Shown here: positions 18,804 through 62,242 of the stretch, one piece after another
Position numbering within the stretch: position 1 is the first letter of the stretch
Layout of the letters: each line of letters opens with the position of its first letter
Source: a virus
Length of the DNA: 64,000 nt
IMG/VR virus record: IMGVR_UViG_3300032323_003201
Location: 8,062 to 72,061 of that record
Direction: 5' to 3' (one strand)
Notes under the pieces: generated by a model
Seen by the model: the letters and a program-made list of their open reading frames with translations, nothing else
Told to the model about the DNA's origin: nothing
Databases searched by the model: none
Made by a program: the position numbers and the translations under genes

Positions 18804-19410
18804 TCTTCATTTCACTCACATACTTAGAAATGGTTTAGCTTTGTACTCTAATCAAGCAAGGTTTAACCAGCTCTTCCCCATGATTGCACCCACACTACAA
18901 GCTAAATTTTACCAGCTCTTTATGGATACTCAAGGGAAAAGGCCTATTGTGATAGACCTTGCCAATGAGGGGAAGGTGCAAGGCTTGCCAATTATTAGCG
19001 TATTACTTACAGAGCAAGCATTTGAGACACAAGGCTTAAGTGATATGAGCGATGATAGGCATCTTCACCTACTGACACTACAAACAGTGGATGTCAATAT
19101 CCATGCTCAAGACCAAGATTTAGTGCGTATTCTGCATGCTATCACCCATGCTAGTTTCCTACAGTATAAATCAGCACTTTTAAGGGTTGGATATGATAAT
19201 TTAAGGTTTGTGACAAGCTCAGATGTAGAGCAGGAAACAGCTTTAAAATCAGAGTCTAACTCACTTGTTAACTACAAGCGAAAGCTAAGATTTTCAGCTG
19301 TGCATCATCTTTATATACCAACAATCACCAGCCTAAATGACCTTGAGTTGCCTATCCTTGTGCAGCTTGATCTACATGGTGGTGACATAACAACCTACAA
19401 AAAAATTTAA
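18796..19410 (+). CDS. Putative tail terminator/neck protein
   Basis: Position immediately before the sheath; LPIISVLL pattern. Confidence 0.5.
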   Translation: MFDLHFTHILRNGLALYSNQARFNQLFPMIAPTLQAKFYQLFMDTQGKRPIVIDLANEGKVQGLPIISVLLTEQAFETQGLSDMSDDRHLHLLTLQTVDVNIHAQDQDLVRILHAITHASFLQYKSALLRVGYDNLRFVTSSDVEQETALKSESNSLVNYKRKLRFSAVHHLYIPTITSLNDLELPILVQLDLHGGDITTYKKI

Positions 19411-19424
19411 CACAGGAGAAACAC

Positions 19425-21356
19425 ATGCCTTCATCAGTGATTTTTCAAGGTGGCAGAAAATATAGACCAGGTGTCTATGGTGAAATCAAGACAGCTCCCA
19501 CAGCCAACCCTAGCATTGCAAGTGGTGCTGTGGCTCTCGTTGGTGATTTCCCTCTCTTCCAAAAAGATAGTGTCCACACCTTTGACAACCTAGAAGCCTT
19601 TTTAGAAGCAACTGGGGGGGAATATGGCCTTGATATACTTGGACAGATTGGTTTCTCACCTAGAGCAGATTTAGGTGGCAATCCCACAAGTATTACAATC
19701 GTAAATGCTCGCAATACAACCCAAGCAAGCCACACAGTGGGTGGGTTAAAGGTAAAGGCAAGACACTATGGCACTTGTGGCAATCGTGTTTTTGTGTCCT
19801 TGGTTGCGAATGTAGATAATGCAGATCTTTATGATTTATATATCTCTGAGGGTGGCTCTATTGTAGAGAAGAACAAGGGGATTGGTAAGGGGAAGATTGC
19901 AAGCCTACAATACACAGGCTCTTTACTCACAGATGTTAAGCTTGTATCAAATCAAGGCTTAGATAAGTTTGCTCTCACCTTTGTGAAAAGCATTAGCTCA
20001 TCAATCATCATACCAGGTACTGCAATTGCTTTGAATGACCTTGGTGTTGTGGGTGCACTTACCTTTACACAAAGACTACTTGCCACCCCATCCCCTGTAT
20101 CAATTACAATTCATGGTTTATCAGAGACAGGCTCATCAATCACTACCACAACCACCTTGCCTGCTGGTGCAGTGGGGACAAGTGTTACTACAAGTCAAGA
20201 GTATTCTCAAATCACAAGTATTGTGCTAGATGGTGCAAGTGATTATGCAGGGTCTATTGAAATCAGTGGCTCTTTATACTCTGTCAAGCTCTCAGAGATT
20301 TCAAGCCTTAGCTCAACTCTAGTCAGTATCAACCAAGTGCATGATGACATTGTTGTGGTTTTGCCTGAGTCTATTGTCAGTGGTGTACAGCTCGATGATG
20401 TTGCAAGTGTCAGCATTTTAGGCAGTGCCTTATCTCTTACATGTGATTGTGCCTTCCTCAAGGATTTCCTAGATGGTAGCCTTGTTTGTGAGGGTGAAAT
20501 TGTCAGTGGTGCAAGACCAACAGCACAAGATTTTAGATTAGTAGGTGGGTCTTTAGGCTCACTCACAGCAAGTGATTGGCAATCTGCTCTTGATGCACTT
20601 GTGTATAAGCAAGTCAATATCGTTGTTGCATACTCAGAGGATATTGCTATCCACCAGCTTGTAAAGGCACATTGTGAAAAGGCATCTATTGAAGCTGGCC
20701 TTGAGAGAAATGCTTGGTGTGGCACAAGTGCAGGCTTAACACTCAATCAAATCTATGCTCAATATGTGAAAGTTTTGAATGATAGAAATTGTGCAGTAGT
20801 GGGTCAATCCCCAATCGTGCTAATCAATGGGGAGAAAAAGACACTTGCACCCAAAGCACTTGCATTCTTCATGGCATGCTTTCAAGCCTCTCTTGGTGTT
20901 GCAACACCTCTTACAAGAAAGCAACCCAAGATATTTGCAACAACTCAAGTATTTAACCCTGAAGCAGATGCAAGCCTTGCAATTCAAAAAGGCATTGTAA
21001 TTCTCAATGGCCAAGATCGTGGGTTAAAAGTTGAACGATCTATCACTACTTGGCTCAAGGATTTAAACCCCTTCTATACTGAAGTATCTGCGAATGAGAG
21101 CATCAATCTTTCTATTAGAGATTTAAGATTATTCCTTGATACAGAGATTGGGAGCAAGTCAACAGTAGCTCAAAAGGATAATGTTCAAAGGCTTACAATC
21201 AATCGCTTGAGCTTTCAAAGAGACAGTGGCTTAATCCTAGATTTCAAGGATGTGTCAGTGCGTCAATCTGGGGATGTCATTAGCATTGTCTATGCAATGG
21301 CAGGAATTGAGCCACTCAATTTCATCACTATCACAGCTAATGTAGGGAGAATTTAG
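19425..21356 (+). CDS. Tail sheath protein
   Basis: N-terminal RPGVY; KARHYG; C-terminal VERSITTW...EVSANE...EPLNFITIT; 643 aa. Confidence 0.88.
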   Translation: MPSSVIFQGGRKYRPGVYGEIKTAPTANPSIASGAVALVGDFPLFQKDSVHTFDNLEAFLEATGGEYGLDILGQIGFSPRADLGGNPTSITIVNARNTTQASHTVGGLKVKARHYGTCGNRVFVSLVANVDNADLYDLYISEGGSIVEKNKGIGKGKIASLQYTGSLLTDVKLVSNQGLDKFALTFVKSISSSIIIPGTAIALNDLGVVGALTFTQRLLATPSPVSITIHGLSETGSSITTTTTLPAGAVGTSVTTSQEYSQITSIVLDGASDYAGSIEISGSLYSVKLSEISSLSSTLVSINQVHDDIVVVLPESIVSGVQLDDVASVSILGSALSLTCDCAFLKDFLDGSLVCEGEIVSGARPTAQDFRLVGGSLGSLTASDWQSALDALVYKQVNIVVAYSEDIAIHQLVKAHCEKASIEAGLERNAWCGTSAGLTLNQIYAQYVKVLNDRNCAVVGQSPIVLINGEKKTLAPKALAFFMACFQASLGVATPLTRKQPKIFATTQVFNPEADASLAIQKGIVILNGQDRGLKVERSITTWLKDLNPFYTEVSANESINLSIRDLRLFLDTEIGSKSTVAQKDNVQRLTINRLSFQRDSGLILDFKDVSVRQSGDVISIVYAMAGIEPLNFITITANVGRI

Positions 21357-21358
21357 TC

Positions 21359-21841
21359 ATGGTACAACCAAGAGTAATCAGTGGTGCATCTGCTATCGTC
21401 AAGCAAAATGGCAAAGCGATTGGATACTGCACCAATATCACAGTAACAGAGAATTACACCCTTCAAAGAGTGGATGTTTTAGGCTCTATTGATAGCTATG
21501 ACATTGAGCCTGTAGGTAGAACAGTGAGCTGTCAAGTGGGTTTCATGAGAGTAGTGCCAAATGGTGGGTCTGCTGCACAAGGTCTTGTTCCTAGCCACCT
21601 TGCCACAGCTACCAATCAACAAAGAACAGTCGATGTGGTTAATTTCTTTTCTCAAGGTGTGGATTTAGAATTAGCTGACTCTGCTGATTTTGGTGCAGGT
21701 CAAAAGACACGATATTTAATTAAGGGTTGCAAGCCAGAGAGCCAAAGCTTTACTGTAAATCGTCAAACTTTGATGGCAACAAATGTAAATTTCCAAGCCT
21801 TAAAGCTCATTGAAATCAAGGATGAAGAGCAATTAGGCTAA
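21359..21841 (+). CDS. Tail tube protein
   Basis: 160 aa directly after the sheath; ISGA...IGY...ENY...VLGS pattern. Confidence 0.8.
   Translation: MVQPRVISGASAIVKQNGKAIGYCTNITVTENYTLQRVDVLGSIDSYDIEPVGRTVSCQVGFMRVVPNGGSAAQGLVPSHLATATNQQRTVDVVNFFSQGVDLELADSADFGAGQKTRYLIKGCKPESQSFTVNRQTLMATNVNFQALKLIEIKDEEQLG
21810..21841 (+). repeat. 32-bp direct repeat, copy 1 (3' end of tail tube gene)
   Basis: TTGAAATCAAGGATGAAGAGCAATTAGGCTAA; 30/32 identical to 22291-22322. Confidence 0.9.
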
Positions 21842-22278
21842 TTTCTTCGTGAGATATCAACCTCAAAATACTCATGTAACTCTTTAATGTATTCATCAAA
21901 TGGTAAAAAATCAAAATCACAGAAAATCTCTTCTATCAAATCCTCACGACTGAAACAAGGCTCATGCTTGTAGGTTGTGATTTTTTCAGCAAGCTCATAT
22001 TGTCGATCATCATTGATTGTGCCAATGACATATGGGATGGGGTAGAAGTATTTGGTGAGTGTGTAAAACTCTAGCTTGGTACTCTTATCCTTATCACCAG
22101 AGATGAAGATATCAAGCTTTTGGTAACCAATAAGAATATGAAGCACAATCAAATCTTTCTCATACTCAATCAAAGAGTGACAAATAGATTTTGGATACCC
22201 CAATTCTTTCACCTTATCGCCTAATGTAGTGGATAGTGTTTGCAATTCTTCTTCAGAGAAAGAGAAAGTTAGGCTCAT
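21838..22278 (-). CDS. Hypothetical protein, array paralogue B'
   Basis: Start MSLTFSF after RBS AAGGAG; similar to 22660-23061. Confidence 0.75.
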   Translation of the reverse strand: MSLTFSFSEEELQTLSTTLGDKVKELGYPKSICHSLIEYEKDLIVLHILIGYQKLDIFISGDKDKSTKLEFYTLTKYFYPIPYVIGTINDDRQYELAEKITTYKHEPCFSREDLIEEIFCDFDFLPFDEYIKELHEYFEVDISRRN

Positions 22279-22290
22279 GGATAGACTCCT

Positions 22291-22322
22291 TTGAAATCTA
22301 GGATGAAGAACAATTAGGCTAA
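22291..22322 (+). repeat. 32-bp direct repeat, copy 2
   Basis: TTGAAATCTAGGATGAAGAACAATTAGGCTAA. Confidence 0.9.
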
Positions 22323-22666
22323 ATGAGTTTCTTATCACCAACAGGACAAGTATCAGTAAATAAAGCAAGGATTTGATCTAGTTTTAAACGATTGCTTACT
22401 TCGTTAGTGTAGTAATCATTATCAATCCATCCAGATGGTAAATACAACAGAGAGATGGAGTATGTGCCATCATTGTAATCAAACAAATACATGATCATCA
22501 TGCCTTTGCTTTCACATTTGTAGCTAATCATAGCAACCTGTTCTTCTTCAACAAGCATGCTATCAAATTTTATACAGGTCTCATCAAGATCATATTTCTT
22601 TTTTGATGCATATAAGAAGAAATTGGATTTGATCGTTTCTTTTTGTTTTTGTGTGAGTTTTAGCAT
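22319..22666 (-). CDS. Hypothetical protein, array paralogue A'
   Basis: MLKLTQKQKETIKSN is similar to MLTLNASQKEQLKQN of 23094-23579. Confidence 0.75.
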   Translation of the reverse strand: MLKLTQKQKETIKSNFFLYASKKKYDLDETCIKFDSMLVEEEQVAMISYKCESKGMMIMYLFDYNDGTYSISLLYLPSGWIDNDYYTNEVSNRLKLDQILALFTDTCPVGDKKLI

Positions 22667-23061
22667 TTGTTTTTAAGGTATTCCTTCAAGCGTGTTGTTC
22701 GGTCAGTCAACCATTCATCTTGTAGACGCTGAGACTCTTTTGGATCAGGCCAAAAAGAATAAGCACATGTAATCAATCTCTCAACTAAAGCAGATCTAGT
22801 ATCATTTGGGTATACAAGAGTTTCTTGAAAGCCAGAGTCTCCTATCTTAAATAGAATATCCTCTGTTGTTGATCCATCATCATTGAAGTGGTACATACAG
22901 CTATATGTACAAAAATCATAGAAAATGCTAATAGCATACATGGGATTACCCTCGATATCTATAGTATGCCTAAGTGGTTTTGTGTGTCCCATAGCTTGTA
23001 ACTGCATGCACATATTACCAAGTATGAGAGCATGCTCTGCGTCTGTAAGTGTGATATCCAT
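22660..23061 (-). CDS. Hypothetical protein, array paralogue B
   Basis: RBS GGAG; similar to 21838-22278. Confidence 0.75.
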   Translation of the reverse strand: MDITLTDAEHALILGNMCMQLQAMGHTKPLRHTIDIEGNPMYAISIFYDFCTYSCMYHFNDDGSTTEDILFKIGDSGFQETLVYPNDTRSALVERLITCAYSFWPDPKESQRLQDEWLTDRTTRLKEYLKNKC

Positions 23062-23093
23062 AAAGGAAGCTCCAGTGGTTTGCTTGTGTATTG

Positions 23094-23579
23094 TTAAGAT
23101 TTTGATGGTGAATTAAAAGAGCCAATATATTGGTCCCCCAAAGAACGAATAGCATTTTTGAGTGCACCATTCATATGGTCAGCATATAAAAGATTACCAA
23201 ACAAGATACCAATATCAAGAACATGGTCATTTAGAATACTATTACTGCCAAAAAGAGTAAGAGCATCCTTGATATCCACAGATTTGTCTTGGTAGTCATG
23301 GGGGATAAGTAGAGACCCAGAGTCAAAACCCATTGGATAGAAAAAGACATGTATCTTGCATTTTTGTTCTTCGTTAACCATCTTTTCTTCTAAAACTACT
23401 CTCAAAGCAAGATGATTGTGCTTGTATTCAATCGTGGGACAAATTGATTTTGGGTGATTGACTTCTTGAAATTCACAAGTTGCAATAGCATATTGTGTGT
23501 TGTCGAATTTCAGTCTTTTAAGAAAAGAAATTAGGTTTTGTTTGAGTTGCTCTTTTTGAGAAGCATTTAGTGTAAGCAT
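23094..23579 (-). CDS. Hypothetical protein, array paralogue A
   Basis: Same 16-bp leader (TGGAGCTTCCTTTATG) as the next gene; first gene after a promoter. Confidence 0.75.
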   Translation of the reverse strand: MLTLNASQKEQLKQNLISFLKRLKFDNTQYAIATCEFQEVNHPKSICPTIEYKHNHLALRVVLEEKMVNEEQKCKIHVFFYPMGFDSGSLLIPHDYQDKSVDIKDALTLFGSNSILNDHVLDIGILFGNLLYADHMNGALKNAIRSLGDQYIGSFNSPSKS

Positions 23580-23609
23580 AAAGGAAGCTCCAATAGGTTA
23601 TTGCATGGT

Positions 23610-23680
23610 TGATTTGCATATGTATATATATATGAATATGTGATTTAGATCAAATAAAAAGTTAAATTTTTAAACTTTTC
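23610..23680 (-). promoter_or_regulatory. Conserved sigma70-like (probably early) promoter
   Basis: Minus strand TTAACTTTTT-AT-TTGATC-N17-TATATA...GCAAATC; same architecture at 36.6, 38.1, 39.7, 58.1 and 63.6 kb. Confidence 0.65.
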
Positions 23681-23770
23681 TTAGATCATAGAAAATAACT
23701 AATTTTTATTCTGTTGCATGAATATTAACTATGCTATATATCAAAGCACTTATCTTTTGATGGAGTAAAA

Positions 23771-24238
23771 ATGAGTAAGAAAGAAACAATTGATTTGAGA
23801 AAGATCAAGGCAGATGCTGAGTCTTTAGTAGAGAAAAAAGAAGATGATTTAGTCAGTAGGGAAGAGAGCTTTTCTATTGAATATGTTGCACCAACAGGCA
23901 AACAATTCAGAGCTGATCTTCTCTCTTGTGTCATGGATACAGAGAGTAGGCTAGCAATGAATAGGGTTTTACAAAGTCTGTGCATGGGGGTTGTTTTTGA
24001 TAACCTACCAACAGAAGAAAAATACAGATTACAAGGTCTTGCTCGTTGTCTAGTACAGCTCAAAGACCCACCAGAGTGGTTAACAGAATGGATTGGTCAA
24101 GACAATCAACTGCTTATACAAATTTTGAATACCTTGATTGAGCATGAAGCTCTTTTTTTTGGAGCAAGCTCCAAAGAGGGTGAAGAGGCTAAGGGACAAA
24201 AGCGAATTTCAATTACTGCAAAGTTTACTACCAGATAG
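23771..24238 (+). CDS. Tail assembly chaperone (G-like)
   Basis: Between tube and tape measure; C(T)8 slippery run at 24152-24160 overlaps a second ORF. Confidence 0.7.
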   Translation: MSKKETIDLRKIKADAESLVEKKEDDLVSREESFSIEYVAPTGKQFRADLLSCVMDTESRLAMNRVLQSLCMGVVFDNLPTEEKYRLQGLARCLVQLKDPPEWLTEWIGQDNQLLIQILNTLIEHEALFFGASSKEGEEAKGQKRISITAKFTTR

Positions 24239-24464
24239 AATTAAATACCACCTCTCAATTGAAAATTATTATTCGTGGGAAAATCTTGAGCTTGCCATGC
24301 TCCACTGCACACAAGAAACATTTGAGCAAGCCTTCCCCCATCTTTATGCTAAAATCGAATTTACAGATGGGATTGCTCTCACAGGTATAGGTGAGATAGA
24401 CAAGATGGAACAGGCTCTAGCAAGAGGAGAAGATCTAAATGAGTACCTCGCAACCTACAAATAA
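24138..24464 (+). CDS. Frameshift extension of tail assembly chaperone (GT-like)
   Basis: Overlapping ORF in the +1 frame with no clear RBS, opening at the T8 run; TGxxEIDxME pattern. Confidence 0.6.
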   Translation: MSMKLFFLEQAPKRVKRLRDKSEFQLLQSLLPDRIKYHLSIENYYSWENLELAMLHCTQETFEQAFPHLYAKIEFTDGIALTGIGEIDKMEQALARGEDLNEYLATYK

Positions 24465-25989
24465 CCAAATACCACCACCTATGGGAGTAGCTCAACCACA
24501 AATCACAGAGCCACCCCAAGCACAGCCTACAATTGCACCACCCACAAGCACACCACAAGCAACAGGCTCAGGTGGTATCATCACTGCGATGAATGGGTTG
24601 TCAGCAGTACTCAAGCAACTCATTGAGATTAATCAAAAGCTGATTGCAAGCAATAACCTAACTGCACAAGCAACACAGCAAGCAACACAGCAAGCAACAG
24701 CACAAGCTAAGGCAGAAAAGGCAGAGAAAGAGAAAGAGGTAACCTTTCAACAGCTTGAACAAAAGATAGCTCAAATTGTTGGCAAGGTGGGTCAAGTGGG
24801 TGGTGCAACCAATGGGTTTGCAGGCCAACTCTCTGCTATCCCTTTTGGTCTTGGTGGCTTGCTTGCATCTCAATTCTCTACCTTGATGGGTGCAGCAGAC
24901 CAAGCCTCTAGCTATGGGTCAAGCCTTGCAGATTTAAAGGGTCTTGGTGGTAGTGGGATAGGTGGATTTGCTGGCAAGGGATATAAATCAGGTGAAGCCT
25001 TCTCTATTCAAAAAGCGATTGCCATGAGTGGTGGGTCTCTAAGTGTTGATCAAGCGATTGCAAGTGAGCAAAGAGGCTTGGGAGCTGGTCTAGTCGCTAG
25101 TGTGCAAAAGCTTGGTGATGTAGTAGGCAAGCAAGCAAATTTAGGTGTATCACTCGCAAGCTCACTAATGGGACAAGATTTATCACCTGAGCAAAGACGA
25201 TCAGGTCTGTCATCCATTCAAGGCATGCTCTCTCAAAGAATGGGGGGTGATTTATCTCTTGCAAGCACCAATAGCACTGAGCTACTTCGTAAAATCAGTG
25301 ATTCAAGTAGTAAAGGCACAAGTTTTCTCCAAACAATAAGCGATATTCAAAAAGAGGATGCATTAAAGAAAGGTATCATTGCATCTGATCCAATAGAAAC
25401 TTTTAATCGTAAGCTATCCACACAGCAAGCAGGTCTATTACTCGCACAACAACAGGCTGATGTAATCAAAGCAAGACCTGATCTTAGCTTGTCCCAACAA
25501 TTACAGCTCTCAAGATACAATTTCATGGGTCAATCCTTGCCACCAGAGATAGCAGATGCATTCAAGGAATTGCCTCTCATACTTGGTAAAGGGAAGGGTG
25601 ATTTTAGTGCGATTGGTAGGGGTGGGATTGCCTCTGCTCAAGCAAGTGCAGAGATGCAAATTATCAATTCAGCTTTAGGCAATTCAAGCTCAATTATTTC
25701 AGCAATCCAAGCAGACACAAGAGTGAGAAGAACGAATATTTCCACCCAACAAGATTATGAAGAGCTAGGTAAGACAGGGGAAACTGCTGCACAAGCTTTA
25801 AGTGTTGGTCTCACAGTGCTTTCTAAGGGTGTAAATACGCTTGCTGGTGCTATGAATAAGACGATTGAAGCAGTGGAAAAACTCACTGAGAAATTTAGTT
25901 TTAGTGGTTTTGGTAATCCATTTAAGAGCGAACCACCAAAAGTAAAGCAAGAAAATCGTAAGGCAGGGGAGGCTAGCAAGCTACCATGA
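24439..25989 (+). CDS. Tape measure protein (short)
   Basis: A/G/S/Q-rich helical protein, 516 aa, after the chaperone; Pro-rich N-terminus. Confidence 0.7.
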   Translation: MSTSQPTNNQIPPPMGVAQPQITEPPQAQPTIAPPTSTPQATGSGGIITAMNGLSAVLKQLIEINQKLIASNNLTAQATQQATQQATAQAKAEKAEKEKEVTFQQLEQKIAQIVGKVGQVGGATNGFAGQLSAIPFGLGGLLASQFSTLMGAADQASSYGSSLADLKGLGGSGIGGFAGKGYKSGEAFSIQKAIAMSGGSLSVDQAIASEQRGLGAGLVASVQKLGDVVGKQANLGVSLASSLMGQDLSPEQRRSGLSSIQGMLSQRMGGDLSLASTNSTELLRKISDSSSKGTSFLQTISDIQKEDALKKGIIASDPIETFNRKLSTQQAGLLLAQQQADVIKARPDLSLSQQLQLSRYNFMGQSLPPEIADAFKELPLILGKGKGDFSAIGRGGIASAQASAEMQIINSALGNSSSIISAIQADTRVRRTNISTQQDYEELGKTGETAAQALSVGLTVLSKGVNTLAGAMNKTIEAVEKLTEKFSFSGFGNPFKSEPPKVKQENRKAGEASKLP

Positions 25990-27488
25990 TTAGAGTTTAT
26001 ATTTTAGGATTAGAAAGCCTTGATATTACAAAGTTTGTGACAAGCTTTTCCTTTTCCAAAGCAATTGATTTAACAAGTAATAAGGCAAGTATGAGCCTTG
26101 ACATGTTTAGCACAAGCATAGATAACTTGTTTAAGAATGGGGATAACTTCGCACTCAAAGGCAAGCAAATCACAATCAAATATGCAGACCAGCTTATCTA
26201 TTGGGGTTTTATTGATAGCATTTCAATAGATACAATTTATGATGATATGGGTCTTGAAATCACAACATGCTCACTCTCTTGCGATAGTATCTTTACTAGG
26301 CTCTTAAACTCTGAGATTGTCCATTCAAATACAACAAAATTGTTTGGCTCTGTGACAAGTCAGACACTGGCTGATTATGGTGCATATCTTAGCCAAGAGA
26401 ATGACTTTGGTAAAATCCTACAATACACCCTTGACCAATTTGCCTTTGCCAAAGCACCACTTGCACTATTTGAGCAGAGCCTTAAAATCGCAGAGCTAAT
26501 CAATGTTTGCGATGGTGTGTCAAATTACCACCTGCCTATTCTCGCTCAATATTCAAATCCAAGCAATAAGGTTTTCTCTATCCTAAAGCAAGGCTTAGTC
26601 AACCCCAATGATAAGTTGCTTACACTACAAAAATTCATGACCATATTTCAGCAGACACCTGAGCTTGTAGAGTTTTTCTTCGTACTCTTACCTTACCAAG
26701 AGAGCTATAAAATTGAGCAATCAAAGAAGGTGCTTTATAAAGCTTTGGGAGCTGTGCCTACAATCATCTTTAGGTACAAGCCACTGCCACCCAAATTCAA
26801 TATCAACCAAAAGACACTTGAGAAGGTGCGTGATACTAGACTCATCTCTAAGGCCACACTTGGTAAAACATACACAGAGGATACAAGCGATAGATCTAAA
26901 ATAGAATACCTAAAGATACCATCACACCAAATACTTTCCATTGCATACGATATTGATGATGAGATGGTCAATACTGTGTCTGTTTACAATGGTGTGAGCG
27001 ATAACAATTCAAGTGTTGCATTCAACCTTGCATCAAGTTTAAACCACCTAATCATGAATAAGGTTGACGCAGAAGAATTTGGCATATCCCACAAGGTCAT
27101 TACTAACTTTTATGTAGAAGATCGTAATCCTCTCATATCTGCCAAGCTGACAGAGCTGGGGTTTTGCTTACATGGTGATGGTGCATATTATAGTAAAGGC
27201 ATTGTGAAGCTCGCTTTATCATTTACCCAATCCCTTGTTGTTGGGATATGGTGTGATATGTCAATCAATGGGTCAAGCTTTACATGCTATATCACCAAGC
27301 TTGATTATAAGATGAGCTTGTCTGCATCTGGTGTACAAGAGGGATACATTGAAATGCACTTTGAGAGAGGTAGTAAAAATAGGTTGCCTCTATTCTATCC
27401 CAAGCAAGTCACACAAGACTATCAAGATAATGGTGCAAGCAAGCCTATCAACCCAATCCCCAAAGCTGACACTGAAAAGAGAGGTTAG
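25986..27488 (+). CDS. Putative baseplate hub protein
   Basis: Position after TMP; LDITKFVTSFSFSK...YWGFIDSI and PTIIFRYKP patterns. Confidence 0.55.
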   Translation: MIRVYILGLESLDITKFVTSFSFSKAIDLTSNKASMSLDMFSTSIDNLFKNGDNFALKGKQITIKYADQLIYWGFIDSISIDTIYDDMGLEITTCSLSCDSIFTRLLNSEIVHSNTTKLFGSVTSQTLADYGAYLSQENDFGKILQYTLDQFAFAKAPLALFEQSLKIAELINVCDGVSNYHLPILAQYSNPSNKVFSILKQGLVNPNDKLLTLQKFMTIFQQTPELVEFFFVLLPYQESYKIEQSKKVLYKALGAVPTIIFRYKPLPPKFNINQKTLEKVRDTRLISKATLGKTYTEDTSDRSKIEYLKIPSHQILSIAYDIDDEMVNTVSVYNGVSDNNSSVAFNLASSLNHLIMNKVDAEEFGISHKVITNFYVEDRNPLISAKLTELGFCLHGDGAYYSKGIVKLALSFTQSLVVGIWCDMSINGSSFTCYITKLDYKMSLSASGVQEGYIEMHFERGSKNRLPLFYPKQVTQDYQDNGASKPINPIPKADTEKRG

Positions 27489-36584: not shown

Positions 36585-36655
36585 GATTTGCTTTGTGAGT
36601 ATAGCATATAATAAAAAATGCATGTGTACAATGAAAAAGTTAAAAAATTTAAATT
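36585..36655 (-). promoter_or_regulatory. Conserved promoter
   Basis: TTAACTTTTT-CA-TTGTAC-N17-TATGCT...CAAAGCAAAT. Confidence 0.6.
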
Positions 36656-37171: not shown

Positions 37172-38062
37172 TTATTCCCAAATTCGCCAAGCGTCTTTCT
37201 CATCAAAAGGCTCACCTTCGTCAACAAGCTCAGTGCAGCCACAATCAAGAGCGATTTGCATCAAGTCTAGTGCATCACCCTTGTCCCCACTCTCAAGAAA
37301 TGACTCCCAAGCACAGAGCATGTTCTCTTGCACCCACTCTCGTGCTTGGGTCAAGGTTTTCAATTTCCCCTCTGGCAAATCATATTGATAGCCATGATTG
37401 AAACCATCACCATACACACCACAGGAATACACAGACATTTTGAAGGTGTCAGTGCTTAGGGACACAAACCAAAGCTTGTCTGCATTGGGTTGGATTGCCT
37501 TCATGCTGTCAACCAAGTCTTGGATATCAGTTGCATTTCTGATGATACGAACCATGTCCAAATACTTGGTCTTCTCTGAGATTGCATTCAAGAAGATTTG
37601 CACACCTTGACAGCTACCACGCACACCAAATGACTTGGTAATGTCAACAATGGTCACACCATTATTTGATACAGTGGTGTCCACAGTGTAGCCATTGATA
37701 TCCATGGTGCTTGTCTTGATTTCTACTGCATCAATGGTTGCTTGCTTTTCTGCCTTGAGGGTTGCAAGCTTTTCTTCCAACACTTTGATTTCATCATCAA
37801 TGGTAGCAACAGTTTCAGCTTGTGCAACAACAACAGGCTTGTCTTCTACCATGCCTTGTGACTCACAGAGTAAGAAGCACATTTGGACAGAGTAAGCAAC
37901 TGGCACATACATGAAACCATCATCTTGACGAACAACAGAGTAGACACCTTCTAGGTGCAATTCAACATTGTACTTGCGACCAGCCTTGTCAACATAGGTG
38001 CGTACTAAGGTGGTTGGGTGGGTTTCTTTGGCTTGTGCGATGAGTGCATTGAAGTCGATCAT
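37172..38062 (-). CDS. Hypothetical acidic protein (probable early gene)
   Basis: 296-aa ORF with RBS AAGGA and its own promoter. Confidence 0.75.
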   Translation of the reverse strand: MIDFNALIAQAKETHPTTLVRTYVDKAGRKYNVELHLEGVYSVVRQDDGFMYVPVAYSVQMCFLLCESQGMVEDKPVVVAQAETVATIDDEIKVLEEKLATLKAEKQATIDAVEIKTSTMDINGYTVDTTVSNNGVTIVDITKSFGVRGSCQGVQIFLNAISEKTKYLDMVRIIRNATDIQDLVDSMKAIQPNADKLWFVSLSTDTFKMSVYSCGVYGDGFNHGYQYDLPEGKLKTLTQAREWVQENMLCAWESFLESGDKGDALDLMQIALDCGCTELVDEGEPFDEKDAWRIWE

Positions 38063-38813: not shown

Positions 38814-39680
38814 TTAAAACTGTGCCTCTTCCCATGTCTCACAATCTTCATCAAACTTTACCATGTCATCATGAATTGTGTCAAGGAAGTCAATCAAATT
38901 TGTTTGGGTGGTAGTGTAGGCACTCTTGCCACTTGCTCTATCATACCACTGGCACAAGGTGAAATCTTCATCATCACTTGCAATTAGTAGATATTCTGTC
39001 TTGCCATAGGTGACCAAGAGTCTGTCTTTGATACCAGGTGCACGATTGCGATTATAGGCCATGAGAAAGGTATCATCCTTGATTTCACAAGAGAGACCAA
39101 GGATCTGTGCCTTTTGGTAAGCCTCTGCAATGGTTTCTTCCTTGATACGAATTTCAGCTTGCTCTGAAGTCTCGAACAGCTCTGCCACTTGCACCTCACC
39201 ATAAGCCTCATCTAGCTTGCTCATACATGAGTCAAGGTTGTGTGTCAAAAACTTGAGACTGCTCTGCAATTGGTCAACCATTTTAAAGCTGTCCTTAACC
39301 ATGTTCTTGAGAGACATGACTTGATCAACACATGGACAATCATCATCTTGCATAGCTTGGATTTCAATAGCAGCAGTTTCAATGACCTGAGCAACTTGAT
39401 TGACAGTTTCAACAACAGCATCTACCAAGGTGTGTACTTGGTTTGTTGTTTCTTCTGCCACTTGTTCAAACACGATTTCAAATTGAGCGATGCCAGTCAT
39501 TTTGTAGCCAAGTCTTTTAGCGATAACAACAAGGATGGGTGTAAAGGGTGAGCTGGTGATTTCATCTTGTGACAATGCATTGCCTTGTGCGTCTACTAGA
39601 GAGAAGATACAGCCTTCAGAAACGATATGAGCTTGTGCTTTGGTGCTGGTGTGTGTAAATTGAAAAATTGACTTCATCAT
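38814..39680 (-). CDS. Hypothetical acidic coiled-coil protein (probable early gene)
   Basis: 288-aa ORF with RBS GGAG and its own promoter. Confidence 0.75.
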   Translation of the reverse strand: MMKSIFQFTHTSTKAQAHIVSEGCIFSLVDAQGNALSQDEITSSPFTPILVVIAKRLGYKMTGIAQFEIVFEQVAEETTNQVHTLVDAVVETVNQVAQVIETAAIEIQAMQDDDCPCVDQVMSLKNMVKDSFKMVDQLQSSLKFLTHNLDSCMSKLDEAYGEVQVAELFETSEQAEIRIKEETIAEAYQKAQILGLSCEIKDDTFLMAYNRNRAPGIKDRLLVTYGKTEYLLIASDDEDFTLCQWYDRASGKSAYTTTQTNLIDFLDTIHDDMVKFDEDCETWEEAQF

Positions 39681-39711: not shown

Positions 39712-39785
39712 GGTTTGCTTGTGTCTTATATTTATCACTATGCAAAAAAGAAGTCAAGTAAAAAGTAAAATTTTTTAACTTTTTT
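39712..39785 (-). promoter_or_regulatory. Conserved promoter
   Basis: TTTACTTTTT-AC-TTGACT-N17-TAAATA...CAAGCAAAC. Confidence 0.65.
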
Positions 39786-40794
39786 TAATCTCATCATCCC
39801 ATAGCCAAAAGTTTTGATCGTTTTTTCTTCGTGTCTTGCGTGGTGGCAGACCTAGTTTTTTCACAATTGCACAGATATATGAGATAGAAACCTCAAGGGA
39901 TTCAGCTATTATTTTGTTGGGGTATCCCTTTTGCCTCATGTTTTTTATCTTCTCCAGTAGTAAGTGTGTCTTATATTTATTTATGAGAAAGTGATTTAAT
40001 TTATAAGTGTAAATATATGATTTAATAGTGCTTGGAGCTTTGCATAGGATATCTGCAATCTCCTCTACACTAAGATTTTGCTCAAGCAAGCCTCTTATCT
40101 TAGAAGCAGGCACAGCCTTGTATGCAGGTGCATCCATGACTTTGATTTGGTAGCTGCATAGGTAGGTTTGGATTGTGCGATGGGATAGACCAAGCTCACT
40201 GGCTATCTCTTTGGCACATAAACCCTCTGCCAGCTTTGCAAAGAAATATTCAGCAGGTGGCTTTTTGGTCTTCATGGTAAAGCCAGTGGTGTGCCTAATC
40301 TTAGCCACATAGCATGCTCTTGTCCCTACGAATTTAGCAATCTGCTCATTCGTAAGACTCGTGTCATTTCCCAAATATTCAACAATCCTTGTGGCCTTGC
40401 TCTTTTTACGATTTTTATCATATAGCTCAACATAGCCATATTTGACAATAGCTCTTCGCACAGAGTCACGATGGACACCTAGCTTTTTAGCCATGTATGC
40501 TGTGGATTTACCAGCTAGGATCATCTTATATAGATCCTTGGGTGAGATTGCTTTAGGCTGTGGCTTGGTCTTGATATGTCCCAAATATACATAAATGAGA
40601 CGCAAGATTGTGCCTTCCATTTTATGTATCTCCCCCCAAGCATCAAGACCTATCTTTTTGACAATTTTTGATTCAACCTTTTCATCCAATCCCATGCTTT
40701 CAAGCACAGGCTTGCACCTTTCAGTGAGCTGTTTCTTTACAAGTGGGTCATCTTGCATCTCAATACAGAGAGCAAGTAATTGTAGATCATCCAT
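39775..40794 (-). CDS. Multi-HTH DNA-binding protein
   Basis: About five tandem HTH-like units (MAKKLGVHRDSV, IAKFVGTRACYV, IASELGLSHRTI, IADILCKAPSTI, IAESLEVSISYI). Confidence 0.75.
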   Translation of the reverse strand: MDDLQLLALCIEMQDDPLVKKQLTERCKPVLESMGLDEKVESKIVKKIGLDAWGEIHKMEGTILRLIYVYLGHIKTKPQPKAISPKDLYKMILAGKSTAYMAKKLGVHRDSVRRAIVKYGYVELYDKNRKKSKATRIVEYLGNDTSLTNEQIAKFVGTRACYVAKIRHTTGFTMKTKKPPAEYFFAKLAEGLCAKEIASELGLSHRTIQTYLCSYQIKVMDAPAYKAVPASKIRGLLEQNLSVEEIADILCKAPSTIKSYIYTYKLNHFLINKYKTHLLLEKIKNMRQKGYPNKIIAESLEVSISYICAIVKKLGLPPRKTRRKNDQNFWLWDDEIKKS

Positions 40795-50893: not shown

Positions 50894-50948
50894 CTGAAAT
50901 ATTGACTCACTCATGTGTTACATAAGTGTATTTCACAAGGATTTTACT

Positions 50949-52355
50949 ATGGATGAAAACACACTCTATAAGATAGCAGAGCTACTTCGTGGGAAGCTCA
51001 AGTCAAGCGACTATGCAGATTACATTTTGGCACTTGTTTGCTACCAAAGCCTTTGCTTGCTAGATGACATGCACAGGGACACACCAGATCAAATGTTTTT
51101 CAATATCCCAATCATCTTGAATGTGAGAAGCATAATTGATGCCTTCAAAAGAGACCCTGACTATGACACCATTGATGCATTACAACAAGCCTTTGCCTAT
51201 ATCCAAGACAAGCTAAGACAGTATGATGATGACTATGCCTCTATCTTTGATAGCTGTGTCATGGATCATGCAAGCTTGGGTGCAACTAGAATGCAAAGGA
51301 ATAGAACAATTGAGCCTATTCTTATTCATTTGAATAGTGCAGTGCACTCACAATCAATGAGTAACTTGGGGGATATCTATGAATTTTTTATCAATCATTT
51401 TGCTCAAATCAATCGTGGCTTTGGTGAATTTTACACCCCCAAGGAGATTGCAGAATTACAGGTTGAGCTATTACTAGATGATAGTGTGCAATCTGTGTAT
51501 GATCCAACCTGTGGATCAGGTGGCTTGCTCCTCCAAGCGATTAAGAAAAATGACAAGCTCAAGGTTTATGGACAAGAGCTTAACAAGTCAACATTCAATC
51601 TATCAATCATGAATTTGATGATGCATGGCCTACACCCATCCCAAATGAGTATAAAGCATGGTGATGTTTTGGATAACCCCATGCACATAGGCACTTCCTT
51701 TGATTTGATTGTGGCAAATCCCCCATTCTCTGTCTCTTGGAATGCAGACAAGCACAAGGATGAATTGAGATTTCCTATACTTGCACCCAAAGGCAAGGCT
51801 GACTTTGCATTTGTGCAGCATATCAGCTGGTACTTGAATGATTATGGTAAAGCGTCAATCATCTTGCCTCATGGTGTCCTCTTTAGGGGTGGGAATGAAG
51901 GGAAAATTAGGCAATGGTTTATTGACAACAATTTGATTGATTGCTTAATTAGCTTGCCACCCAACACCTTCTATAGCACAAGTATACCAACCTGCATGAT
52001 GATCCTACGAAGAGGAAGGGAAATAGACGCACCTATTCTATTCGTTGAGGCTAAGACTGAATGTGTCAAGGATGGTAAATTCAATCGTATTATCAAGGAT
52101 AGGATTTTAGATGTGTATGCTCATAAAAAAGAGATACCTGGATTTTCTAAGCTTGTAGAAAAGTCTGAAATCGTGCAGAATGAATATAACCTAAACTTTC
52201 CTAGATTTATCAGCACCTTTGAAGAAGAAGAGCAGATAGACTTAGAGAAGGTCATCCTAGAAACCAATGCTACAACTCAATCGATTAAGCACCTTACAAG
52301 CAAGATCAATGAGCATTTCAAGGCAATGGGTCTTAAAGTATTTTTGGAGATTTAA
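50949..52355 (+). CDS. hsdM: Type I RM-like N6 methyltransferase subunit (NPPF), orphan
   Basis: GEFYTP, YDPTCGSGGLL, YGQE, VANPPF, PHGVLFRGG, YNLN..R and a C-terminal coiled coil. Confidence 0.92.
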   Translation: MDENTLYKIAELLRGKLKSSDYADYILALVCYQSLCLLDDMHRDTPDQMFFNIPIILNVRSIIDAFKRDPDYDTIDALQQAFAYIQDKLRQYDDDYASIFDSCVMDHASLGATRMQRNRTIEPILIHLNSAVHSQSMSNLGDIYEFFINHFAQINRGFGEFYTPKEIAELQVELLLDDSVQSVYDPTCGSGGLLLQAIKKNDKLKVYGQELNKSTFNLSIMNLMMHGLHPSQMSIKHGDVLDNPMHIGTSFDLIVANPPFSVSWNADKHKDELRFPILAPKGKADFAFVQHISWYLNDYGKASIILPHGVLFRGGNEGKIRQWFIDNNLIDCLISLPPNTFYSTSIPTCMMILRRGREIDAPILFVEAKTECVKDGKFNRIIKDRILDVYAHKKEIPGFSKLVEKSEIVQNEYNLNFPRFISTFEEEEQIDLEKVILETNATTQSIKHLTSKINEHFKAMGLKVFLEI

Positions 52356-53372: not shown

Positions 53373-54221
53373 ATGCGTAGCACCTTTGAGCTGACACTAA
53401 TTGATGACCAAGCAAAACCCTTTATTAAGTGGGTTGGTGGGAAAAGGCAGTTATTGCCAGAGATAAAACATTATTTACCTAAGCAATTTAATCAATATTT
53501 TGAGCCTTTCATAGGTGGTGGTGCATTGTTCTTTGAGCTAAACACGAAGCATGCAGTAATCAATGACTACAATATTGAATTAGTCAATGTATACAAAACA
53601 ATAAAGCATGACCATATTGCACTTATTGAAGATTTAAAGAAGCATAGAAACACAGAGGATTACTACTATGCTATTCGTGGGTTAGATAGGGATGAGCAAG
53701 CATTTGCCAGCTTGACAGGTATTGAAAGAGCAAGTCGATTTATCTATTTGAATAAGACAGGCTACAATGGTCTATATCGTGTGAATAATAAAAATCAAAT
53801 CAATGTGGCCTTTGGTGGATATGAAGCACCATGCATTTTAGATGAGAATAATATCAAAGCCTGTCATCATGCTTTACAAACCACAACCATTTTGCAAGGT
53901 GACTTTGAGAATATTAAAGGCTTAATTCAAAAGGGGGATTTTGTCTACCTAGATCCACCCTATGCACCTTTGACACCAACTGCAAACTTTGTGTCATATA
54001 CAGCTCAAGGCTTTGATCAAGCTATGCAAGAGAGAGTAAAGAATTTGTGTGATGAGATAGATAAAATAGGTGCTTATTTCATGCTATCCAATTCAAGTGC
54101 AGACATGATTTTAAATTTGTATAGGCACTATGATATTAAAATGGTTTTGGCAAATCGCAAGATTAATTGTGCAAGTGATAAAAGGGGAGCTGTCAAAGAA
54201 GTACTTGTGACAAATTATTAA
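53373..54221 (+). CDS. dam: Dam-family DNA adenine methyltransferase
   Basis: KWVGGK, EPFIGGG, NGLYRVN, FVYLDPPY and FMLSNS motifs. Confidence 0.92.
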   Translation: MRSTFELTLIDDQAKPFIKWVGGKRQLLPEIKHYLPKQFNQYFEPFIGGGALFFELNTKHAVINDYNIELVNVYKTIKHDHIALIEDLKKHRNTEDYYYAIRGLDRDEQAFASLTGIERASRFIYLNKTGYNGLYRVNNKNQINVAFGGYEAPCILDENNIKACHHALQTTTILQGDFENIKGLIQKGDFVYLDPPYAPLTPTANFVSYTAQGFDQAMQERVKNLCDEIDKIGAYFMLSNSSADMILNLYRHYDIKMVLANRKINCASDKRGAVKEVLVTNY

Positions 54222-54273: not shown

Positions 54274-54873
54274 ATGTTAATTGGATATGCAAGAGTAAGT
54301 ACAGATGAGCAATCACTAAACCTTCAGATTGATTATTTAAAGCAAGTAGGCTGTGATAAAATATATGAAGAGAAAATGACAGGCAAGACAAAGGATAGAC
54401 CAGAGCTGAAGAAGGCACTCGCTAAACTAAAGAAGGGTGATACCTTAGTATGTCTCAAGCTTGATCGTCTAGGTAGATCCATGAAGCACCTAATTGATAT
54501 TGTTGATCAAATCAAAGAAAAGGGTTGTCATTTTAAGACAAGTGATGGCATAGACACAAGCACGCACATGGGTGTTTTTATTTTCCATATCTTTGGTGCA
54601 CTCGCTGAGATGGAATTAGGCATGATCAAAGAGAGAACAAGATTAGGCTTGAATGCAGCCAAAGCAAGAGGAAGGATTGGTGGCAGACCCAAAGGTCTAT
54701 CAAAAAGATTGCAAGGCAAGGCTGACACAATTATACACCTATACAAGCAAGGGATGAAAGCTTGTGATATTGCCACCACAGTTGAGATTGCTCATGCAAG
54801 TGTTTACAATTGCTTAAAGGCTCAAGGCATTACCTTAAAAACTAAAACTAAGAATGAGAACAATCATGAGTAA
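54274..54873 (+). CDS. Serine recombinase (resolvase/invertase family)
   Basis: IGYARVST..Q...Q, RPEL, GDTLV..KLDRLGRS, ERT..GL.AA.ARGR.GGRP and a C-terminal HTH. Confidence 0.95.
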   Translation: MLIGYARVSTDEQSLNLQIDYLKQVGCDKIYEEKMTGKTKDRPELKKALAKLKKGDTLVCLKLDRLGRSMKHLIDIVDQIKEKGCHFKTSDGIDTSTHMGVFIFHIFGALAEMELGMIKERTRLGLNAAKARGRIGGRPKGLSKRLQGKADTIIHLYKQGMKACDIATTVEIAHASVYNCLKAQGITLKTKTKNENNHE

Positions 54874-56191
54874 AAAAATATCTGAGAAGGTGGATGCACT
54901 TTACCATTCATATGCACAGCATTTTACACAAGAGCAAGTGGCTCAAATTATCCTACAATCACTTTTATTACAAATGACAAGTGGCAAGATTTATGACTCA
55001 CTAGATGCAATTAAAGAGAGCATAGGGAATGCACCAGAAGAATATAAAATGCTATTGAATACAGCTCTCTTTGATAAGTGGCAAGCTCTAGCAATTTATG
55101 AAGAAGCAAGCAAGTTTGATTTGAGTCGTGAGAGAGATGATTTGGGGGAAGTATTTGAGTATTTGATTAGTCGTGCAGATGCACAAAGACTAGGACAATT
55201 CTACACACCCCCAACACTTGCTAATTTACTCATCAAAATTTGTATGCTTGGAAGAGGTGATGAGCCTTTATCTATCTATGATCCAGCTATGGGAACAGCA
55301 GGCTTACTTGTGCTTGCTCAAAAATACCTAAAGAGAGATGATAAATTCTATGGTCAAGAGTTTAATTCAACAAGCTGGAAGATAGCACTAATCAATGCTT
55401 TACTTAATGGTATGAAATATGATTTTGGCTCAAATCCATGTAGTACATTCATTTGTGATATCCATGCAAATCAAAAAATGGATATTATCCTTGCAAATCC
55501 ACCATACAATCAAAAGTCATGGAATGATGGGATTGATATCCTAAAGGATGATAGATTTAAAGATATGCCACACCCACCATCAAGCAATGGTAATTTTGCA
55601 TGGATCTTACATTGCCTGCACCACCTAAAGGATGATGGGATAGCAAGCATAGTAATTGCGAATGGGTCACTAACAACCATGCAAAAGGATGAGCTTGTAG
55701 TAAGAAAATATTTAGTAGAGCATGACCTAGTGGAAGCTGTCATATCACTACCACCAAAGCTATTTACAACAACAAGCATATCTGCATGTGTATGGGTGAT
55801 AAATAAAGCCAAGAAAAAGAAGGGACATATTCTTTTTGTGGATATCGCAAGTGAAGGCAAGAAGATTAGTAGAAATCAAAATGAGCTTGATATACTGACA
55901 ATTGACCAAGTGGTTGATACAATAGGTAGGTGGAGAAATGGGGAAGAGATAGGCACAAGCTCAAAGTATGTGGATAAAAGCATAGAGGACACAAAAGAGA
56001 GAAGCTACAATCTAGCACCTGGTCAATACCAAGAGGTAGTAGTAGATAAGTGTGAGATGACAGAGGAAAGCTTTGTGGAAAAGATGACAAGGCTTATATA
56101 TGAATTTGACACACTATCTGATGAGAGTGAGAAGCTCACAAAGAGAGTAAGAGAAAATCTAAGTAGGTTAAGGTGGGAAAATGAAAAATAG
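54866..56191 (+). CDS. hsdM: Second type I RM-like methyltransferase subunit (NPPY), orphan
   Basis: GQFYTP, IYDPAMGTAG, YGQE, LANPPYN, PP.SNGNFAW, YNLAPG.Y and a C-terminal coiled coil; shortened N-terminus. Confidence 0.9.
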   Translation: MSKKISEKVDALYHSYAQHFTQEQVAQIILQSLLLQMTSGKIYDSLDAIKESIGNAPEEYKMLLNTALFDKWQALAIYEEASKFDLSRERDDLGEVFEYLISRADAQRLGQFYTPPTLANLLIKICMLGRGDEPLSIYDPAMGTAGLLVLAQKYLKRDDKFYGQEFNSTSWKIALINALLNGMKYDFGSNPCSTFICDIHANQKMDIILANPPYNQKSWNDGIDILKDDRFKDMPHPPSSNGNFAWILHCLHHLKDDGIASIVIANGSLTTMQKDELVVRKYLVEHDLVEAVISLPPKLFTTTSISACVWVINKAKKKKGHILFVDIASEGKKISRNQNELDILTIDQVVDTIGRWRNGEEIGTSSKYVDKSIEDTKERSYNLAPGQYQEVVVDKCEMTEESFVEKMTRLIYEFDTLSDESEKLTKRVRENLSRLRWENEK

Positions 56192-61732: not shown

Positions 61733-62242
61733 ATGGCAAAGCAAAACCAAAACGATTTACCATGGGAAAATGATCCATTTGTGGATGAAATCCTATCTGC
61801 TCAAGCAACAAGACAATCTGCTTACTTTGTACCTGGTCATTACCTTGTGCGAATTTTGAATTTCAAGAGAGCTGAAACTCGTAAAAAGAGACCCTTCATC
61901 GTGCTTGAAACAGTGGTGCTTGATAGTGATGTAAGTGACTTCCCACAAGGAAGTGAAGCTACTTGGATGCAAATGCTTGATATGGACACAGCTGCTGGCA
62001 ATATCAAAAATTTTATTACAAGAGCCTTGAATGTAGAAGCAAATTCTGTTACAAAGGATGTGTTGATTAGAGCATTGGCTCAAAATCCTCAAACTGGTCG
62101 ATCCAATCTAGCAGGTCTCAAGCTTGAAATCACAGCCAAAGAGATTATAACCAAATCAGGTAATCCCTTCACTGTGCTATCATTCATCCCTGTGCCTGCT
62201 GGAAAGCAAGACACTGCTACTAAATTGGGTGACCTACTCTAA
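61733..62242 (+). CDS. Putative single-stranded DNA-binding (OB-fold) protein
   Basis: YFVPGHYLVRI...TKSGNPFT pattern; follows the primase-helicase. Confidence 0.5.
   Translation: MAKQNQNDLPWENDPFVDEILSAQATRQSAYFVPGHYLVRILNFKRAETRKKRPFIVLETVVLDSDVSDFPQGSEATWMQMLDMDTAAGNIKNFITRALNVEANSVTKDVLIRALAQNPQTGRSNLAGLKLEITAKEIITKSGNPFTVLSFIPVPAGKQDTATKLGDLL

Follow-up and report, generated by a model that had tools for sequence, protein, structure and literature searches.

The locus considered here is a set of four minus-strand genes, named A, B, A2 and B2, which lies between the tail tube gene and the tail assembly chaperone gene of an uncultured freshwater myovirus represented by the IMG/VR record IMGVR_UViG_3300032323_003201. 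The record comprises 72,061 nucleotides (nt) with direct terminal repeats (DTR), and the stretch analysed, referred to below as the window, corresponds to its bases 8062-72061 (64,000 nt). The interval in question (21842-23770 in window coordinates, which are used throughout) is probably an accessory-gene island placed in a recombination hotspot, provided with its own early-type promoter and remodelled by turnover of units at short homologies. In regard to systems already described, the closest one appears to be the promoter-early stem-loop (PeSL) cassette of T4-type phages with its ORFans. According to Arbiol et al. (2010, PMC2839356), PeSLs stand in front of ORFans at places where near-identical phages differ, and they consist of a sigma-70-like early promoter, an AT-rich upstream region and a stem-loop. 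The same account notes that virion modules contain a few PeSLs, which nearly always adjoin genes without a known function, and proposes PeSL mini-circles as vehicles for the spread of ORFans among T4-type phages.

The likeness to PeSLs lies in a repeated, putative sigma-70-like promoter with an AT-rich upstream stem-loop, placed ahead of ORFans at sites of insertion, deletion or replacement; here, an AT palindrome is located directly upstream of the -35 element in five modules. On the other hand, about five to seven module copies are present in our phage, in contrast to the approximately 50 given in that source for a T4-type genome, the palindrome is a weak AT-only one (-2.7 to -8 kcal/mol) whereas the PeSL carries a G/C-rich terminator, and none of the additional repeats of the locus is a whole PeSL, one being a translation leader and the other the 3' end of a gene. 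Furthermore, the phage (72 kb) is unrelated to the T4-type phages, and its promoter is a predicted one. Hotspots of accessory genes that carry a repeated early-type promoter module are a known kind of region, to which this locus adds an example outside the T4 group while leaving the current understanding of how such regions evolve unchanged; what is new is the nearly orphan protein family found in it.

Two other kinds of accessory region invite comparison. Textbook morons belong to temperate phages and are expressed from the prophage; they have reportedly been described in lambdoid and other tailed phages by Juhala and coworkers in 2000 and by Hendrix and coworkers. The island resembles them in being an additional transcription unit that sits in the late structural block, separates two genes which are neighbours in relatives, differs from its surroundings in base composition and has a putative promoter of its own. 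Of the four features that define a moron, the island would show three if an own promoter and terminator are counted, of which only a promoter module is seen; the fourth, expression from a prophage, does not fit. It also differs in that no integrase was found, in that it holds four genes which run antisense to the operon, and in that no terminator was found behind it. In Mu-like Pseudomonas phages, anti-CRISPR operons are found among the structural genes, and share with our locus the variable small ORFans, distantly related at most, at a fixed position in the late region of phages that are similar in other respects, together with a promoter of their own. However, no match to a helix-turn-helix (HTH) domain of the aca type was found in the four proteins, the island is antisense, and no similarity to a known family was detected.

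In the window, the plus strand carries nearly all long open reading frames (ORFs) from about 0.8 to 36 kb, including a structural block with portal, protease, major head, sheath, tube, the chaperone-position pair and tape measure genes. The sole break in this arrangement is formed by four minus-strand ORFs, which the original prediction had located correctly and which fill the 1,929-nt gap between the tube and the chaperone genes (lengths in amino acids, aa; pI, isoelectric point):

23094-23579, minus strand: gene A, 161 aa, pI 6.4, promoter-proximal
22660-23061, minus strand: gene B, 133 aa, pI 4.8
22319-22666, minus strand: gene A2, 115 aa, pI 4.9
21838-22278 (ATG at 22278), minus strand: gene B2, 146 aa, pI 4.6

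Both A and B have a GGAG sequence 8 nt ahead of the ATG, B2 has AAAGGAG 7 nt before its ATG, and the start of A2 overlaps the stop of B (ATGCTAA). Strong Shine-Dalgarno (SD) sequences, such start/stop coupling, the existence of homologues of B and B2 at 56-76% identity, and the confidence of the B2 structure model argue that these are real genes. The encoded proteins are soluble and mostly acidic, with no hydrophobic segment in any of the four (maximum 19-residue Kyte-Doolittle mean 0.8-1.5). The GC content of the genes is 32-38%, in comparison to 41-42% in the sheath and tube genes, and the bin 22001-24000 holds the window minimum (34.5%). B2 and the tube gene converge with overlapping stops, and no terminator-like site was found behind B2. 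A homing endonuclease or transposase was considered as a resident of the island and rejected, as no nuclease or transposase domain was found in the four proteins with Pfam and PHROGs.

An indication of a hotspot comes from the same site in related phages. A search with the tube protein gave 11 IMG/VR loci and 4 metagenome loci, that is 15 related loci, 12 of them with both flanks readable; IMG/VR scans with the tube alignment (which returned all 11) and with the chaperone (9 of them) gave no contig beyond the first 11. The spacers between tube and chaperone genes in the readable loci were as follows:

136 nt: no gene, seven loci (L008-L012, L026, L027)
274 nt: leader and first codons of the L006 gene (an 8-codon stub), then a stop, four loci (L003, L004, L005, L007)
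980 nt: one unrelated antisense gene of 241 aa, one locus (L006)

None of the four proteins gave a match in any of the 15 related loci (tblastn, E<=1e-3), and IMG/VR scans with B2, the B-family alignment and the B2-family alignment returned no locus. The family profile A6 likewise had no match in five related records including the complete relative G001, an empty answer that proves little. The tail module of G001 is collinear with that of the window at 72-78% nucleotide identity, and the homology breaks exactly at the island, stopping at 21823 and resuming at 23751. An invariant locus among relatives, along with unrelated predicted folds, had been named in advance as what would speak against the original prediction; at least four spacer states exist. 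The island is dispensable, compositionally foreign, and filled differently or left empty in relatives.

Several features of the related loci deserve separate mention. The other antisense cassette is found in nested states: full (L006:6464-7446), as an 8-codon stub with leader (L003:5806-6082), and absent (L008 type), and all three types retain approximately 60 nt on the chaperone side. In L013, a homologue of the L006 gene (z 15) is followed by another antisense ORF before the contig end; the homologue appears as two overlapping ORFs of 70 and 69 aa (L013:6004-6353), a split which may reflect a frameshift or decay, and the further antisense ORF has 97 aa (L013:6447-6740). In L025, whose tube is the closest relative (98%), 16 nt follow the TAG stop before the contig ends, and these do not resemble the window (L025:4481-4499), which hints at another allele or at an assembly break caused by heterogeneity at the site, while the contig of L028 ends inside the tube gene. 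Cassette-free relatives (L008:5777-5804; L009-L012, L026, L027) have a perfect 12-bp AT-rich hairpin just past the tube stop, with a folding energy of -10.2 kcal/mol that none of 200 shuffles equalled, and they also carry extra TGTTCAAA half-sites. The window lacks this hairpin, which may serve to terminate or attenuate transcription between tube and chaperone.

Variants of the locus itself were found in public assemblies, where the stretch is present in runs of several studies and where the contigs, not the reads, of runs X5, X7, X8 and X12 were compared. In X5, X7 and X12, from three studies labelled freshwater, low-depth fragments are 100% identical to the window where it is covered and contain no joints; for X12 this identity holds for six 151-nt pieces, while two short, deep tube-gene pieces differ, and the uncovered parts in these three runs prove nothing. 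Run X8, labelled wastewater, contains a 9,014-nt contig at a depth of 15 with flanks approximately 97% identical, in which 21915 is joined to 23685. In this variant 1,769 nt are removed and a 74-nt 3' stub of B2 is kept. The joint lies within a 12-nt direct repeat (family D2) whose copies agree in 11 of 12 positions (21916-21927 at the left edge of the deletion and 23685-23696 at the right edge), and four letters at the joint fit both sides, so that the deletion arose at a 4-nt microhomology. Together with the variable spacers in relatives, this contig bears out the proposed gain and loss of cassettes.

Other contigs of X8, at a depth of 2.5-5, cover 21914-22668 (B2 and A2) at approximately 97% identity and continue into unlike sequence past the A2 start. 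In a 426-nt contig of the same run, the last 56 nt equal the A leader and promoter (23577-23632) and the preceding sequence is unlike the window; its 30-nt loose end can be read as M-Y-I-K-L-T-D-A-E-Q-K, an N-terminus of the B type (B starts with M-D-I-T-L-T-D-A-E). These contigs are consistent with a three-gene array composed of promoter, a diverged B, A2 and B2, without A, as an exchange at the leader repeat would give.

Two pairs of repeats delimit units within the array:

21810-21841: 32-nt direct repeat, copy 1, the last 10 codons and stop of the tube gene, holding the B2 stop on the other strand
22291-22322: 32-nt direct repeat, copy 2, in the A2-B2 spacer, holding the A2 stop
23059-23081, minus strand: leader repeat ahead of B, with SD GGAG, 8 nt and ATG
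23577-23599, minus strand: leader repeat ahead of A, with SD GGAG and ATG

As had been predicted, the first two genes share an identical 16-nt leader (23059-23074 and 23577-23592), which extends to a match of 20/23 and occurs only at these two places in the window (0.12 expected; two occurrences were reached in 0/100 shuffles). Equally, B2 and A2 both terminate at the same TAG inside the 32-nt copy of the tube 3' end; the copies match in 30 of 32 positions, and two matches with up to three mismatches are present in the window where 0.00 are expected from 100 shuffles. B2 flanked by the 32-nt repeat pair forms a 481-nt unit, and A flanked by the leader pair a 518-nt unit. As to recombination at such short repeats, the mechanism originally put forward, the low-depth X8 contigs would be consistent with a leader exchange, and the one deletion seen does not match it, having occurred elsewhere. 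Two other origins were considered and rejected. Action of the serine recombinase of the phage at the 32-nt repeat does not fit a sequence that is no palindrome and has no further copy in the window; in-situ tandem duplication of the tube end together with a gene does not fit either, since the repeats agree to 94% whereas B2 and A2 show no relationship (494/500 shuffles score as well). Upstream of B, the 10 nt at 23077-23086 (minus strand) recur exactly, or as 13 nt with their flanks, in the transcribed box of the promoter at 39757, and may be the remnant of a promoter module which belonged to B until A came to lie ahead of it.

An own promoter had been proposed for the island, and the sequence supports it in the form of a module shared with other promoters of the genome:

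23625-23653, minus strand: sigma-70-like promoter, TTGATC, 17 nt, TATATA, found by a regular-expression (regex) scan and by alignment with four sister modules
23656-23679: AT-rich palindrome directly upstream of the -35 element, a weak hairpin of -5.7 to -8 kcal/mol

The distance from the -35 element to the ATG of A is 74 nt, and the promoter scores 8/12 against the sigma-70 consensus, on the assumption that sigma-70 rules apply in the host. The module spans approximately 75 nt and consists of the AT palindrome, TTGAYY, 17 nt, TAWAYA and then a CAAAGCAAAYC-like box. Its positions in the window are 23656, 36634, 38142, 39774, 58085/58094, 61654 and 63551. Sister modules precede the genes starting at 38062 (minus), 39680 (minus), 61733 (plus) and 63625 (plus), and looser copies lie near 36650 (minus) and 58100 (plus); the genes 37172-38062, 38814-39680 and 61733-62242 downstream of modules had no family match. 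The half-site AAAAAGTTAAA, with up to one mismatch, is present in 13 copies in comparison to 4.14 +/- 2.0 in shuffles, none of 100 of which reached 13. The non-structural half contains twelve of these copies, at 36.6-63.6 kb, and the structural half a single one, at 23656. Among 12 regex promoter matches, 5 carry the motif directly upstream, all 5 intergenic and facing a gene 60-77 nt away. The evidence for the promoter consists in the enrichment of this upstream motif and in its presence at 5 of the 12 matches. Weak folding energies of -8, -7 and -2.7 kcal/mol were obtained for module hairpins on the transcribed strand. The module is specific to the lineage, as its core decamer TTTAACTTTT has nine copies in G000 and none in the relative G001. 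A phage regulator could use the palindrome as its operator.

In regard to the relationships among the four proteins, an alternating array (A-B-A'-B') had been suggested from the sequence, and this held only in part when pairwise similarity was tested against 500 shuffles per pair. The strongest pair, A and B2, had not been proposed; it has a z of 6.2 (0/500 shuffles) and a BLAST E of 9e-5 over 72 residues, and is alignable end to end. The suggested relationship of A and A2 is significant (z 4.9, 3/500 shuffles; BLAST E 2e-4, 38% identity) but confined to the first 26 residues. The other suggested pair, B and B2, is not significant pairwise (z 0.9, 108/500 shuffles), while comparison of the two families with homologues added gave an hhalign P of 0.0017 over 111 columns, which is only suggestive. 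A2 and B2 show no similarity. The B family compared to the A/B2 profile gave a P of 3.8e-4 over the N-terminal 46 columns, and A2 matches the joint profile only at residues 2-16 (P 0.0078). Leave-one-out hidden Markov models never recovered the omitted member (E 0.7-3.1). From these comparisons, A, B2 and probably B would constitute one very divergent family, with which A2 would share at least an N-terminal helix motif.

Searches for homologues indicate how isolated this family is. Among 5.8e9 clusters, A found only itself, B2 had one homologue (P0003, 56% identity), and B had three (60-76% identity), in which a C-terminal block is invariant. When 1.84e9 representatives were searched with a profile built from B2, P0003 and A, one protein, P0008 (E 1.8e-4), was added, and neither the family profile nor A2 found any PDB sequence below E 0.28. 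The structure of B2 was predicted with AF2 from a 7-row alignment (B2, P0003, P0008, A, B, P0005, P0006), which resulted in a confident model (pLDDT, the per-residue confidence, 88.8; pTM, the global one, 0.81); prediction from the single sequence was useless (pLDDT 36.9). As the alignment presupposed homology, the gain in pLDDT is consistent with homology and is not proof of it. The model has a helix at 9-26, four meander strands at 33-79, short helices, and a long C-terminal helix at 127-145. Structure prediction followed by Foldseek, the check recommended at the outset for all four proteins, yielded for B2 a confident model and no clear fold match. The best results were the following (rmsd, root-mean-square deviation):

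Foldseek against PDB: best E 0.33
Foldseek against BFVD: best E 0.012 at TM 0.29
VIA-align against representatives: capping protein, Z 7.4, rmsd 5.5 Å
VIA-align against representatives: TriTu immunity protein 7zhm_D, Z 6.5, rmsd 2.8 Å, 82/87 residues
VIA-align against representatives: T7 Gp1.2, Z 4.7, rmsd 3.3 Å, 80/83 residues
VIA-align against the Foldseek top 1000: CapZ beta, Z 8.4, rmsd 5.6 Å

These values are to be read against a VIA-align background in which a best Z of 7-8 is typical for models without a true match. For A and B, ESM Atlas searches gave scores of 0.82-0.84, below the lead threshold of 0.9, and no family could be named; the Atlas models themselves have a pLDDT of 0.47 (A) and 0.54 (B).

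Taken as an accessory island in a hotspot, the locus could function as follows. The host polymerase would read the island from the sigma-70-like promoter along with the replication and nucleotide-metabolism genes and, since the module is found elsewhere only in the non-structural half, most likely early. Because no terminator was found between B2 and the converging tube gene, late transcription towards the chaperone and tape measure genes must be expected to cross the island antisense, which would be a plausible way of shutting it off. Turnover of units, through gain, swapping and loss, would proceed by microhomology deletion and by recombination between short regulatory or gene-end sequences that they share. 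The products A and B2, and probably B, would represent a nearly orphan family with an architecture of a helix, a four-strand meander sheet and helices. As to their function, we can only infer, and offer as a tentative suggestion, that the four proteins bind and inhibit a host protein in counter-defence or host takeover. More elaborate, and unlikely in our estimation, is a scheme in which an unknown family of helix-sheet inhibitors is diversified by integrase-free cassettes and the antisense placement acts as a built-in timer. The units would then be bounded by the leader/promoter module on one side and by a copied gene end on the other, which would allow them to be stacked, swapped and dropped through short-homology recombination; early transcription by the host polymerase would make the inhibitors and late convergent transcription would shut them off.

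Several observations weigh against the interpretation as a turnover-driven, early-expressed island. The array without A is assembled from fragmentary contigs (2.5-5x) and from the consensus of a 30-nt loose end, and the only deletion seen used the 4-nt microhomology, not the 32-nt or 16-nt repeats. Some of the 11 IMG/VR and 4 metagenome loci may be the same assemblies. A stricter sigma-70 scan gave 4 sites in the region, where 11 were expected, and none upstream of A; the looser regex was written after the sequences had been seen, and the 12 matches it gave do not exceed what shuffles produce (6.0 +/- 2.3, maximum 13). Early expression is suggested by similarity of the promoter. The unity of the family appears weak for B and A2, none of the four proteins has a match at curated cut-offs in Pfam, PHROGs, PADLOC or NCBIfam (PADLOC covering defence families, not counter-defence), and neither Foldseek nor VIA-align provided a clear fold match for B2.

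It is also conceivable, if improbable, that the genes are selfish or neutral passengers, that is, ORFan cassettes which travel with a repeated promoter/leader module and bring little or no benefit to the phage. Such a module is indeed repeated in the genome, the family is nearly absent from the 1.84e9 representatives, 11 of the 12 relatives with both flanks readable have no intact gene at the site, and the deletion contig of X8 is deeper (15x) than the cassette-bearing pieces (2.5-5x). Contig depth is, however, an unreliable measure of frequency, and the long invariant blocks in the B and B2 homologues at 56-76% identity suggest purifying selection; moreover, A2 and B2 are approximately 97% conserved in a second study (X8).

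A more doubtful alternative regards the four as immunity- or antitoxin-type proteins which neutralise a bacterial toxin or an abortive-infection effector, similarly to the orphan immunity arrays known from polymorphic toxin systems. The tandem array of very divergent small paralogues would suit such a role, as would the superposition of the B2 model on 7zhm_D and the structure search with the Atlas model of B, which led to a cluster with 13% of members carrying Pfam TriTu (TM 0.51/0.57). The PDB entry 7zhm is the TriTu immunity protein of the Salmonella Rhs toxin TreTu, and like it the modelled B2 is small and combines helices with a sheet. However, the Z of 6.5 lies within the background, the identity is 6%, and B2 has approximately 60 extra residues including the long C-terminal helix. 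In addition, neither TriTu (PF24689) nor any other immunity family of Pfam matched the four proteins at E<=1, the Atlas models reach only the pLDDT values given above, and no toxin gene adjoins, the neighbours being the tube gene, the chaperone gene and the paralogues.

Morons for superinfection exclusion or lysogenic conversion, expressed from a prophage, share the own promoter, the lower GC content and the insertion between genes adjacent in relatives, and are nevertheless very improbable here. No match to Phage_integrase was found in the phage proteins (positive controls worked), so that no tyrosine integrase is at hand, and the sole recombinase found is a 199-aa protein of the resolvase/invertase type. 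Direct terminal repeats and nucleotide-metabolism genes are typical of virulent phages. Exclusion proteins are often membrane proteins, and the four proteins have no hydrophobic segment. That the ORFs are untranslated, the interval serving as a regulatory spacer or as antisense RNA which tunes tube versus chaperone expression, would agree with the spacer hairpin of relatives and with the lack of homologues of A elsewhere, and is scarcely credible in view of ORFs of 115-161 codons in DNA of 32-38% GC with SDs and coupling, protein-level homologues of B and B2, the confident AF2 fold of B2, and an Rfam search with only a sub-threshold snoRNA-like match (E 0.28).

The preferred reading, a hotspot island, gives the locus a wider interest in two respects. 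Phage hotspots that differ by small early ORFans have repeatedly held counter-defence and host-takeover genes, and functional screens are offered a concrete target by a nearly orphan family whose confident model has no clear counterpart among known folds. Related to this, a natural series is available at one site (empty, stub, one gene, three or four genes, deleted) in a lineage without a cultured relative.

The surrounding genes, all on the plus strand, were assigned as follows:

19425-21356: sheath gene, PHROG 279 (E 1e-39)
21359-21841: tail tube gene, left flank, PHROG 3776/365 (tail), weak Pfam Phage_tube_2 match
23771-24238: tail assembly chaperone gene, right flank, named by position and synteny
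24138-24464: ORF overlapping the chaperone gene, with which it forms the chaperone-position pair
24439-25989: tape measure gene

The tube protein is 89-98% identical across the 15 related loci and the chaperone 92-95% identical in relatives; the chaperone gene has no family match of its own in Pfam and PHROGs. In GenBank phages, nothing matched 19400-26000 at the DNA level, B2, B and the tube protein had no counterpart at the protein level, and the best match to the sheath has only about 26% identity. The non-structural genes include those for RNR (ribonucleotide reductase), a ThyX-type thymidylate synthase, a clamp, a primase-helicase and several methyltransferases.

Three further regions of the window are worth noting. 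The gene of the serine recombinase (54274-54873, plus strand, 199 aa, Resolvase plus HTH_7, E 3e-44) has genes for DNA methyltransferases on both sides (50913-52355, 53373-54221 and 54854-56191), two of which are HsdM-like N6_Mtase paralogues of 480 and 445 aa; this arrangement could be an invertible or shuffled methylase module. The segment 1069-9123 contains genes of 1,015 and 1,549 aa without nucleotide homology to the relative G001, while both its flanks are homologous; the 1,549-aa gene has repeated matches to tail-fibre and decoration-like PHROGs, and the segment is probably a swapped host-range module. Finally, the gene at 39775-40794 (minus strand), directly upstream of one promoter module, encodes a 339-aa protein composed of several HTH units (HTH_38, HTH_23, GerE-like) with faint HNH and invertase PHROG matches, and is a candidate for a regulator or a degenerate homing gene.

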